64,000 nucleotides of DNA from Planctomycetota bacterium (GTDB taxonomy: Bacteria; Planctomycetota; MHYJ01; WSZJ01), in NCBI GenBank assembly GCA_038060895.1, contig JBBTCT010000015.1:32001-96000 (forward strand). Reading direction: 5' to 3'. Every line of letters starts with the position of its first letter. The first letter of the stretch is position 1. The notes below the pieces were generated by a model. The model worked only from the letters and a program-made list of their open reading frames with translations. It searched no databases and was not told where the DNA came from. A program made the position numbers and the translations under genes. Shown here piece after piece: positions 16,792 through 33,195 of the stretch.

Positions 16792-17078
16792 GTCGGTCTC
16801 CCTCAGTTTCATGGAAAGGCGGTAAGCAATCGAGGTGCCCCGGACGCGCGGGACTTCCCGGTTTCGACACTAGGGGAAAGGCCGGGGTAACGCGACCGGC
16901 AGCCGGGGGAAGAGCCGCAAGCGCCCCAATCCGGGGCTCCGCTTCGAGATTCCACGCCTCCCCACGGGAAATTCTTACGGCGGCTCGCGGGTCAATTTGA
17001 CGCGGGGCAGCTTTCGGGAGGATCATTTCGACCCGGCACGGCCCCGGTTTCCCGGAAGCCATGCCGGCCACGAAGTCG

Positions 17079-17327
17079 CTACTCCCTGAAAAAAGTGGTT
17101 CCGCAGCTCGCCATCGAAGCGGCCGGAGGGCATGCAGCACTTCTTGAAAACGCCTCCCGGACCCGCAGGGGCAGAGGTCGTTCCTGCCCAGTTTCTCGAA
17201 GAGCTCCTTGTCGCCGTGCACGACGCGGCGGCCCTTCTTCACGTGGGTCTCGGAAGGGAAGCCTCGGCGGCGCTTACTGGTCGGCTTGCGGAAAGCAGCG
17301 TTCGTCGTCGTTGGGGATGAGTGCCAT
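17079..17327 (-). CDS. SEC-C motif small protein encoded across three +1 frame transitions (putative programmed frameshifting)
   Basis: SD AGAGGAGG plus ATG 17327. Skipping one base at each TTT-C gives [81 protein letters not shown] (81 aa) with a complete SEC-C motif. Confidence 0.75.
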
Positions 17328-17423
17328 ACGGACCTCCTCTCAAAAGGAAAGGCGCGTCAAGCGCGGCGTCTTGATCGTGATTCCCGTCGAAAGGTTCAGG
17401 GATGGCGGCGGGGCAGCCCGGAA

Positions 17424-17720
17424 TCAGAGAAGCATGAGTTCGACGCCGTCGTCCGCTTCGCCGCCGCCGACTCCGTGCGCGCGGATGATCTCCACGATCG
17501 TCTCGAACCTGGGGAGCGTCCGCCGCGAACGGCCCGAGTGCGTCCATCGCAGGACGAATCCGCCCTTGGGCGTGCCGAAACCCCCGCGCAGGATGTCGTT
17601 GAACGCGTCGAGGTTGCGGCCCCACTTTGCGCCGGGGATGAGCACCCGGGAGATTTCGTCGTAGAACTCCTCAAGAGTTCCGAAGCGAGTGCCGTCGAAT
17701 TCCAGAACGGGTTTTGCCAT
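17424..17720 (-). CDS. Barstar-family ribonuclease inhibitor
   Basis: Barstar signature LEEFYDEISRVL..WGRNLDAFNDIL...VLRW. Confidence 0.85.
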   Translation of the reverse strand: MAKPVLEFDGTRFGTLEEFYDEISRVLIPGAKWGRNLDAFNDILRGGFGTPKGGFVLRWTHSGRSRRTLPRFETIVEIIRAHGVGGGEADDGVELMLL

Positions 17721-17800
17721 GGGGTGAGGAGAAGATATCACGGCCTCGAGATCAACGTCGTTTTGGGTCCCGTCGCCACGCAAGGTGTCCGCAAGCGGTC

Positions 17801-17832
17801 TGTATCCAAATGTGTATATAATTCTGTATACT
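17801..17832 (+). promoter_or_regulatory. TA operon promoter/operator
   Basis: TGTAT at 17801, 17813 and 17825 (exact 12-bp period), overlapping TATAAT (17817-17822) and TATACT (17827-17832). Confidence 0.6.
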
Positions 17833-17859
17833 TGCCAGTGACACCTGAAGGAGGAGTTC

Positions 17860-18105
17860 ATGAGCTTGACCGTCCGCATCCATTCGACAACTCACATCGC
17901 GCTCAAGGGTCTCTCGAAGGCAACCGGCAAGTCCATGCAGGATGTCCTGTCGCTGGCCATTGATGAATTTCGTCGGAAGTGGATGCTGGCGGCGACGGCG
18001 GAAGCCTTGAGTGAGTTGCGAAAGGACCCCAAGGCCTGGAATCAACTGATGGCGGAGCAGAAAGTGTGGGAGGGAACTCTCGCCGACGGACTTGAGCGGG
18101 AATGA
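17860..18105 (+). CDS. Ribbon-helix-helix-type antitoxin
   Basis: N-terminal TVRI strand plus helices, C-terminal WEGTLADGL. ATGA overlap with the toxin gene. Confidence 0.85.
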   Translation: MSLTVRIHSTTHIALKGLSKATGKSMQDVLSLAIDEFRRKWMLAATAEALSELRKDPKAWNQLMAEQKVWEGTLADGLERE

Positions 18106-18461
18106 AGACCTCCATTCCGCGTCGAGGTGAAGTCTGGCGACTCGATTTCGATCCTGCTCAAGGCCACGAGCAGGCGGGCTTGCGACCCGCCCTCATCGTG
18201 TCGGATGATGACTTCAACCGTTTGCCCTGGCGGCTTTGCGTGGTTCTCCCTCTGTCAACGACACTCCGCTTGTTTTCGCTTCATGTAACGATCCATCCCC
18301 CCGAGGGCGGGTGTCGACAGCCGAGCGTCATCATGTGCCAGCACCTGCGCTCGGTCAGTCTCGACAGGTTGGACAAAAGGCTCGGGACGGTTACGGACGC
18401 GACTCTCGCGGAAGTGGACTTCAGGCTGAAGTCGATCCTGGCGCTGGCGGGGCGGGCCTGA
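18102..18461 (+). CDS. mazF: PemK/MazF family endoribonuclease toxin
   Basis: RRGEVW..FDPAQGHEQAGLRPALIVS..FN, QHLRSVSLDRL. Confidence 0.93.
   Translation: MKTSIPRRGEVWRLDFDPAQGHEQAGLRPALIVSDDDFNRLPWRLCVVLPLSTTLRLFSLHVTIHPPEGGCRQPSVIMCQHLRSVSLDRLDKRLGTVTDATLAEVDFRLKSILALAGRA

Positions 18462-31095: not shown

Positions 31096-33195
<2,100 letters not shown>

Follow-up and report, generated by a model that had tools for sequence, protein, structure and literature searches.

The stretch of DNA analysed here (64,000 nucleotides of a Planctomycetota bacterium, positions 32,001 to 96,000 of contig JBBTCT010000015.1, hereafter the window) carries on its minus strand, between an ATG at 17327 and a TAG at 17079, a mini-gene for a small SEC-C protein, whose reading frame changes three times, each time at a Phe codon. 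Based on its sequence and on its relatives, this is in all probability a functional mini-gene of a widespread and unannotated family, the full product of which would be made only via serial +1 ribosomal frameshifting. An earlier note on the window had proposed such serial recoding at UUU-C, and serial +1 recoding at Phe UUU-pyrimidine (UUU-Y) is now strongly supported by the comparison with congeners and across phyla.

Among the 77 homologous loci that could be read at all sites, and which come from many phyla, at least one +1 shift is required in 76, and the shifts are confined to four recurrent Phe positions (here called sites 1, 2, 2b and 3). Three shifts are needed in 58 of these loci, two in 13, four in 1, one in 4 and none in 1. 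The three protein segments that follow the leader (B, C and D) are each under purifying selection in their own frame. With its three-shift design conserved across phyla, the arrangement has the look of a deliberate gate and not of damage.

Anatomy of the mini-gene in the window

The elements of the mini-gene, given in window positions and in the order in which a ribosome would meet them, are the following:

17340-17333, minus strand: Shine-Dalgarno (SD) sequence AGAGGAGG, 5 nucleotides (nt) 5' of the ATG; the GGAGG-type SD is kept in the congeners G003 and G004 (alignment)
17327-17325, minus strand: start ATG, read from the sequence
17292..17327, minus strand: leader (segment A) in frame 0, the ATG plus 11 codons, the last two being TGC TTT
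17294-17291, minus strand: shift site 1, TTT-C (TTT 17294-17292, C 17291), 0-frame next codon CCG
17147..17290, minus strand: segment B in the +1 frame, with a basic N-terminal region and then half of the SEC-C motif, its first (…CPCGSGRRF)
17153..17158, minus strand: SD-like GGGAGG, 3 nt before the TTT of site 2
17149-17146, minus strand: shift site 2, CGT TTT C (TTT 17149-17147, C 17146), 0-frame next codon CAA
17089..17145, minus strand: segments C and D in the +2 frame, with KKCC, which finishes the SEC-C motif, and then …SGRFDG…NHFF
17094-17088, minus strand: shift site 3, TTT TTT-C, 0-frame next codon CAG, identical in the congeners G003, G004 and G005
17087-17079, minus strand: tail AGG GAG TAG (R-E-stop), after the third +1 and in the same frame as the ATG
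about 17033-17067 (core), minus strand: GC-rich hairpin with a GAAA loop, 3' of the stop, -39.6 kcal/mol, z -3.75

On re-reading the sequence, every coordinate that the earlier note had given for the SD, the ATG, the frame-0 leader and the stop six codons on (TAA at 17276-17274, counted from site 1) proved exact, and the same holds for the three TTT-C junctions and for the RE-TAG ending in the frame of the start codon. The leader is acidic in one patch (NDDE) and has C-F as its last residues. In the +1 frame, the GTG at 17242 is not preceded by any ATG, GTG or TTG. When the three shifts are taken (translation with TTTC read as F), the product is 81 amino acids (aa) long, and the four ligands of the SEC-C motif (C-x-C…C-[CH]) are all present, the last two Cys being reached, as had been claimed, only after the second +1. 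The Pfam SEC-C model (PF02810) matches residues 48-66 of this reading with 39.6 bits, against a gathering cut-off of 20.4 (E 4.7e-10).

The count of three non-junction Phe codons, all TTC, needs a correction: the three TTC codons are there, and a fourth Phe codon outside the junctions exists, which is TTT (the first of TTT-TTT-C). TTT makes up only 15.6% of the Phe codons in 976 long open reading frames (ORFs) of the window's genome, which has 65.8% GC, so that chance alone would not be expected to put TTT at all three junctions. The CAA codon that follows site 2 in the 0-frame is rare in this genome (2.7 per 1000 codons). The hairpin that had been noticed past the stop is real and is possibly a terminator, though a terminator pattern scan found no T-tract at it in the window copy.

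The genome of the window (G000) is a metagenome bin, 86.5% complete and in 47 contigs, and the T-runs, over which the earlier note had advised mapping raw reads, were compared with other data. Logan contigs (not raw reads) from two other studies retain all the T-runs, with zero differences and zero gaps over the stretch: X3 record 8 (spanning 16900-17367), X7 record 22 (17026-17260) and X4 records 16 and 20 (16908-17127 and 17194-17500) are identical to the window. A 173-nt X3 contig, in which a GC appeared to be put in at 17148, was rejected, since its match is weak, is limited to 17133-17166 and comes from a different SEC-C gene. Additionally, the prfB gene of the same genome (locus L113 on contig C6, at about 2500-2600 of the locus, minus strand) has the canonical CTT TGA C after about 21 codons, and from this intact motif it follows that the assembly preserves a known +1 site and that the organism uses such recoding.

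Conservation in congeners and across phyla

In the genus, the family proper is present in four of eight genomes (G000, G003, G004 and G005, with best E values of 1e-11 or below). In the remaining four the matches are weak only (E 1e-4 to 5e-7) and correspond to the SEC-C motif from query residue 44 onward, with the exception of G001, where the best match covers query residues 12-65 (E 1.1e-4). Both G003 and G004 retain the SD, the ATG and each of the three frame changes, and both read TGC TTT CCG at site 1; G005 retains sites 2 and 3. Site 2 of G003 is CGG TTT C, with 3 T and not 4 in the run, and the shift is still present. Most of the changes seen in the congener alignment are synonymous; in segment B, the window and G003 differ by 17.5 synonymous and 4.5 non-synonymous differences. 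When compared with the congener loci L009, L010 and L011, the conserved stretch is about 310 bp long (approximately 17041-17354), comprising the mini-gene, its SD and the post-stop hairpin, at which it ends. The flanks differ, which indicates that the mini-gene moves as a cassette.

Outside the genus, a protein search returned 2207 small SEC-C proteins from many phyla (about 65-88% identical among the 120 listed), typically 55 aa long and ending in …SGRF, or 64 aa long and ending in …YYF; some database proteins have a leader like that of the window, but in frame. In a genome scan using one genome per species, at least 576 of 600 stretches were confirmed, and the 80 loci analysed (isolates and complete chromosomes among them) are the best tblastn matches of these, not a random sample. 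Positional reading was done for 84 loci, of which 79 were classed at sites 2 and 2b (leaving out L055, L058 and L107, with no motif, and L081 and L083, with an unclear site 2) and 77 at all sites (leaving out also L057, at a contig end, and L074). The selection analysis additionally left out L011, L054 and L072, and the tree and site-compensation analysis left out L011, L029, L054, L072 and L093.

In 66 loci the leader starts in the -1 frame. In this count, as in the numbers of shifts per locus given above, eight loci with an unresolved site 1 are treated as unshifted there, and the site-1 assignment of L060 is probably false (an in-frame ATG is present). The leader is roughly 10 aa or more and ends in [C/F/S]-F (the scripted choice of ATG was sometimes too distant, hence some lengths above 90 aa), and in 46 of the 66 it has D or E at position -4. 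It is followed by TTT CGA, TTT TGA or TTT CCG and then by GAG… in the +1 frame. At the inner sites, 41 of the 79 loci have a +1 at site 2 (F|KKCC) only, 21 at site 2b (…GRF|DG) only, 10 at both and 5 at neither, and in the remaining 2 site 2 is shifted and site 2b is unclear. Rare members (P0016, and L043 in its tail) are fully in frame and have the same leader, core and tail in a single ORF.

The UUU-Y sequence that the window has at its junctions is retained at the same places in the congeners and across phyla. The shifted codon is TTT in 49 of the 51 loci shifted at site 2 and in 28 of the 31 shifted at site 2b (in one exception, L042, it is CTT TGA, the prfB motif); members in frame at site 2 have TTC in 21 of 26 cases, and those in frame at site 2b tolerate Tyr. 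The skipped base is a pyrimidine (C or T). The 0-frame next codons are stops or C-variants of stops, distributed as follows:

Site 1: CGA 32, TGA 26, CCG 4; a stop in 26 of 66 loci
Site 2: CAA 40, TAA 5; a stop in 6 of 51 loci
Site 2b: TGA 24, CGA 7; a stop in 24 of 31 loci
Site 3: TAG 31, CAG 17, CCG 6; a stop in 32 of 59 loci

Of the 40 loci with a sense codon next at site 1, 27 reach a stop in the 0-frame within 3-5 codons, and the Ser codon AGT, which is the source of this backup stop, occurs in 19 of the 40 sense-type loci and in 2 of the 26 stop-type loci (p 0.0009). Of the 51 loci shifted at site 2, 16 have an SD-like word at most 15 nt ahead of this site, and none of the 26 in-frame loci has one. 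When both inner sites are present, site 3 is missing in 9 of 10 loci, against 7 of 62 others (p 1.2e-6, with kinship ignored; an independent-pairs test had a single pair on supported branches and thus no power). Together with the 58 of 77 loci that need three shifts, this apparent compensation, in which kinship is likewise ignored, suggests selection for about three gates.

The third shift, which the earlier note had held to be the least constrained, is supported by the survey as well: past site 3, 35 of the 59 shifted loci have the tail RE* (26) or RD* (9), with R* in 6 others, and the in-frame members end alike.

The evidence for selection comes from 74 loci, with the frames anchored on the CC and DG motifs, which introduces a mild circularity into the following values. 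Segment B has entropies of 0.49/0.41/1.49 at the three codon positions and a ratio of non-synonymous to synonymous changes (pN/pS) of 0.21 in its own frame, against about 1.9-2.0 in the other two. For segment C the entropies are 0.85/0.71/1.37 and the own-frame pN/pS is 0.38, and for segment D they are 0.83/0.65/1.41 and 0.36, with 0.97-1.29 in the other frames of these two segments. The leader behaves differently, since with entropies of 1.62/1.46/1.67 no protein-level constraint is seen in it.

As a rule the gene is not phage-borne. No match was found in phage records, and the viral contigs held five loci, three of them good. The plasmid records contain two unannotated copies on a Manganitrophus megaplasmid and a weaker match to an annotated SEC-C domain gene of a Lactococcus plasmid (57% identity over 55% of the query). 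In the family tree (72 rows) no inner branch is well supported (0 of 69 starred), and the phyla are mixed, with 28 changes of phylum label against a minimum of 14; the cassette seems to move horizontally. Gain and loss counts of 8, 6 and 10 obtained on this tree are rough, given its lack of supported inner branches.

Alternative explanations, mechanism and precedents

The sites combine a shift-prone P-site codon with a conserved position that has selection in different frames on either side, two of the features by which programmed +1 frameshifting is recognised. Four other explanations have to be weighed against ribosomal frameshifting. In one that we regard as unlikely, the parts are translated separately: the leader would be an upstream ORF, and the body would start at the ATG of MSKRR, or by re-initiation, and end at the first stop, so that the 55- or 64-aa database forms would be the real products, made with no slipping. 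These database proteins do correspond to such ORFs, and the 26 loci without a shift at site 2 have the whole zinc motif in a single frame; in 51 of the 77 loci, though, the four motif Cys are split over two frames. Likewise, an ATG stands at the M position in 25 of the 77 loci, but the other 52 have Thr, Ser or another codon in its place, and in 20 (the window among them) the conserved SKRR is not preceded by any ATG, GTG or TTG in frame B. Neither would separate translation account for segment D and the R-[ED]-stop tail, which are conserved and selected past the stops, nor for the in-frame members, which join leader, core and tail in one ORF.

Very unlikely, in our view, is restoration of the frame by other means, namely polymerase slippage, RNA editing that removes a U or C, or a four-base tRNA. 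Polymerase slippage could draw on the six-T run of site 3, but the runs at sites 1 and 2 have just 3-4 T (3 at site 2 of G003), and such runs are far below what polymerase slippage requires. A four-base tRNA could be sought in an odd tRNA with an 8-nt anticodon loop, located in a 34-tRNA array on another contig of the window's genome; its loop (tatg) matches neither UUUC nor UUUU, and the many phyla that carry the family cannot all share one special tRNA.

A decaying pseudogene, that is, a once intact SEC-C gene with three 1-nt insertions, is improbable to a degree that leaves it little room. Random decay would not yield solely +1 events solely at UUU-Y, and the breaks are all of this kind, at four fixed positions, with 76 of 77 loci, from many phyla, broken at matching Phe codons. 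The core is without other indels or stops, pN/pS is 0.21-0.38 in each shifted frame, TTT is specific to the breaks, and the backup stops co-vary with the type of site 1. What speaks for decay is the 5' truncation of the G005 copy, the absence of TTT from site 2 of G004, the patchy presence of the family proper (four of the eight genus genomes) and the lack of annotation, gene callers having passed over the mini-gene and no feature lying under the plasmid matches. Finally, sequencing or assembly errors, which a metagenome bin with T-runs at all three sites might lead one to suspect, are refuted by the identical contigs of two other studies and by at least 70 other assemblies with the same breaks, isolates and complete chromosomes among them.

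Besides the choice of the 80 loci and the anchoring of the frames, already mentioned, several observations weigh against serial ribosomal frameshifting as proposed here. The G005 copy is 5'-truncated, with its 5' half missing, and site 2 of G004 is TCT, not TTT. L067 has TTT-G, L059 (a Lysobacter isolate) has a displaced shift at AAG-G, and site 2b is ATA-C in L039 and GTA-T in L041. From these required shifts without a slippery codon (G004, L067, L059, L039 and L041) it follows that some copies are dead or that another route exists, and the contexts other than UUU-Y in the last four could accordingly reflect decay or an additional shifting mechanism. In 25 of the 77 loci, translation could start at an in-frame ATG of MSKRR, with no need for shift 1, and with TTT TAG at site 3 the protein gains just two residues from the shift. 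In the window, a rare next codon and an SD-like word are found only at site 2; CCG after site 1 (29.9 per 1000 codons) and CAG after site 3 (25.4) are common, so that no obvious slowing of the A site is to be expected there. Moreover, slippage at UUU_Y amounts to a few percent, and three such events in series would give a very low yield.

A separate oddity is seen in a planctomycete copy (L093:3093-3166), where TGA replaces the second Lys codon of KKCC (TTC AAA TGA TGC TGC); the copy may be dead, or a further recoding event may take place there.

In the frameshifting mechanism that we favour, translation would begin at the SD and ATG on the short acidic leader, and the peptidyl-tRNA-Phe (anticodon GAA) in the P site would leave UUU and re-pair one base 3' on UUC. 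Ribosomes that do not slip would terminate early or, at site 3, continue into the hairpin. The slip at UUU-C is modelled on the known behaviour of UUU_Y, and the UUU-Y sites, the preference for TTT and the pyrimidine as skipped base all fit re-pairing of a P-site tRNA-Phe(GAA) from UUU to UUY. With three serial slips the output would be approximately the cube of the slippage efficiency, and this cubic gate would respond steeply to an A site that stays empty for longer or to a loosened pairing of tRNA-Phe. The housekeeping tRNA-Phe of the window's genome has the anticodon GAA, with A36-A37-A38, and MiaA is present, from which we infer its modification state.

The tRNA complement of this genome has a further peculiarity: 34 of its 85 tRNA genes lie within about 4.2 kb (C22:195134-199316). 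This array contains a second tRNA-Phe(GAA), with G37 in place of A37, and the odd tRNA with the 8-nt anticodon loop mentioned above (C22:196109-196184).

A close mechanistic likeness is prfB, which has, as proposed for the sites of the mini-gene, a +1 P-site slip to an overlapping cognate codon, before an A-site codon that is slow in prfB and may be so at site 2 of the window, with its rare CAA. It also has an SD-like word upstream that resembles the GGGAGG-CGT-TTT-C of the window; in prfB, the spacing of this word is 3 nt. The mini-gene differs in having three serial shifts in about 80 codons and not one, UUU and not CUU, an A-site codon that is often sense (CAA, CGA, CAG, CCG), and a product that is not a release factor and has no known feedback loop. 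To our knowledge, programmed +1 frameshifting in bacterial cellular genes is limited to very few cases, each with a single shift.

The same UUU-pyrimidine tetranucleotide, with tRNA-Phe re-pairing to UUY, is described for YopN-TyeA of Yersinia and FseA of a Mesorhizobium integrative and conjugative element (in a 2016 recoding review, PMC5009743), as well as for influenza PA-X and the amalgaviruses, whose +1 motif is UUU_CGN (PMC5052127). UUU CGA is likewise the commonest form of site 1 in the family (32 of 66). All of these are single shifts, which fuse two ORFs or add a C-terminal domain, whereas the mini-gene has up to four alternative sites in one tiny ORF, and usually needs three, all of them. 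Euplotes nuclear genes and the Perkinsus mitochondrial cox1 also need multiple +1 shifts within a gene, always at one type of codon; there the decoding is altered genome-wide, and here it concerns one family in otherwise ordinary bacteria of many phyla. In the literature searched, supplements aside, no account of this family was found, nor one of serial +1 shifts in any cellular gene of bacteria, and passages of the GeneTack survey (PMC3711429), its supplementary cluster tables excepted, do not mention the family.

Neighbourhood, product and possible role

The genes next to the mini-gene in the window are, with a gene for a TPR protein downstream of it, the following:

17424-17879, minus strand: Barstar-like (RNase inhibitor) gene, directly upstream of the mini-gene
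17860-18105, plus strand: MazE-like gene, divergent, pairing with MazF/PemK
18102-18461, plus strand: MazF/PemK toxin gene, pairing with the MazE-like gene

The Barstar-like gene and the MazE/MazF pair form, beside the mini-gene, a small cluster of genes for RNA-targeting toxins and immunity. Across the 80 loci the neighbourhood varies. The earlier note had suggested looking for co-occurring genes such as those of RNA repair; they are absent from the window, where the mini-gene is not part of an RNA-repair operon (RtcB lies on another contig), whereas 12 of the 80 loci, belonging to several phyla, have them no more than 3 kb away on one side or the other, mostly directly downstream and on the same strand:

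L030 and L091: RtcB and a PrfH-like factor
L047: Ro60 and RtcB
L038 and L043: RNA ligase, HD-kinase and Hen1
L049: kinase, Thg1-like protein and RNA ligase
L033, L051 and L063: Hen1
L048, L070 and L077: Ro60-like protein

By chance, such a neighbour might be expected at about 1% per locus, a figure that we estimated and that does not come from a measured control. From this gene neighbourhood a link of the family to RNA damage and repair can be hypothesized, and the roles put forward earlier for the mini-gene (a sensor of translation fidelity, tRNA damage or tRNA modification, or a leader for downstream genes) may be considered on the same basis.

The sequence predicts a small, basic product of about 80 aa, which carries a single SEC-C knuckle and is a candidate binder of zinc or iron. 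It shares the C-x-C…C-C zinc or iron knuckle with the SecA tail, YecA and YchJ, and differs from them in being only about 80 aa long and in its N-terminal half, which is basic, conserved and peculiar to it. It does not belong to YecA/YchJ, since the NCBIfam models give 29-34 bits against cut-offs of 140-158 (the best being 33.7 against 140, and 29.8 against 149) and the motif alone matches. Nothing beyond this motif was matched in NCBIfam and PADLOC, which hold no curated family model for the product; the ESM Atlas returned only SEC-C clusters of 'hypothetical protein', and Rfam only a sub-threshold isrL match, outside the gene. An AlphaFold2 model of the in-frame homologue P0016 (from a 22-row alignment) has a mean predicted local distance difference test score (pLDDT) of 58.7 and is for the most part of low confidence, with 63-76 only over the knuckle. 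In SecA, the metal-binding domain binds SecB and ribosomes (bioRxiv 10.1101/613315).

We tentatively propose, as a possibility that is less probable than not, that the family is an ultrasensitive meter of how well the reading frame is maintained, with a product that acts on ribosomes or RNA in an RNA-repair response and with three gates maintained by selection for a cubic dose-response. If this were true, useful amounts of the product would arise only with an A site left empty for too long or with loosened tRNA-Phe pairing, and the triggers could be tRNA or 16S rRNA cleaved by ribotoxins, starvation, a shortage of release factor or hypomodified tRNA-Phe, and the product would be part of, or a switch for, RNA-repair responses, possibly with an RF2-like feedback on slippage. 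That the mini-gene is repeatedly placed before genes of RtcB, Hen1/kinase/ligase and Ro60 suggests that RNA repair in bacteria has a component or regulator so far overlooked.

For annotation, the family represents a blind spot, its gene being either annotated as 55- or 64-aa fragments or missed entirely. The 2016 recoding review considers trans-frame proteins specific to starvation or stress conceivable and states that 'no examples are known' (PMC5009743), and the mini-gene makes this question testable. If serial frameshifting is indeed how the mini-gene is read, this would be the first conserved bacterial family, extending over multiple phyla, with three consecutive shifts in an ORF of about 80 codons; slippage at UUU-pyrimidine would have to be efficient or inducible enough for gating, and the mini-gene would constitute a natural reporter of frame maintenance.

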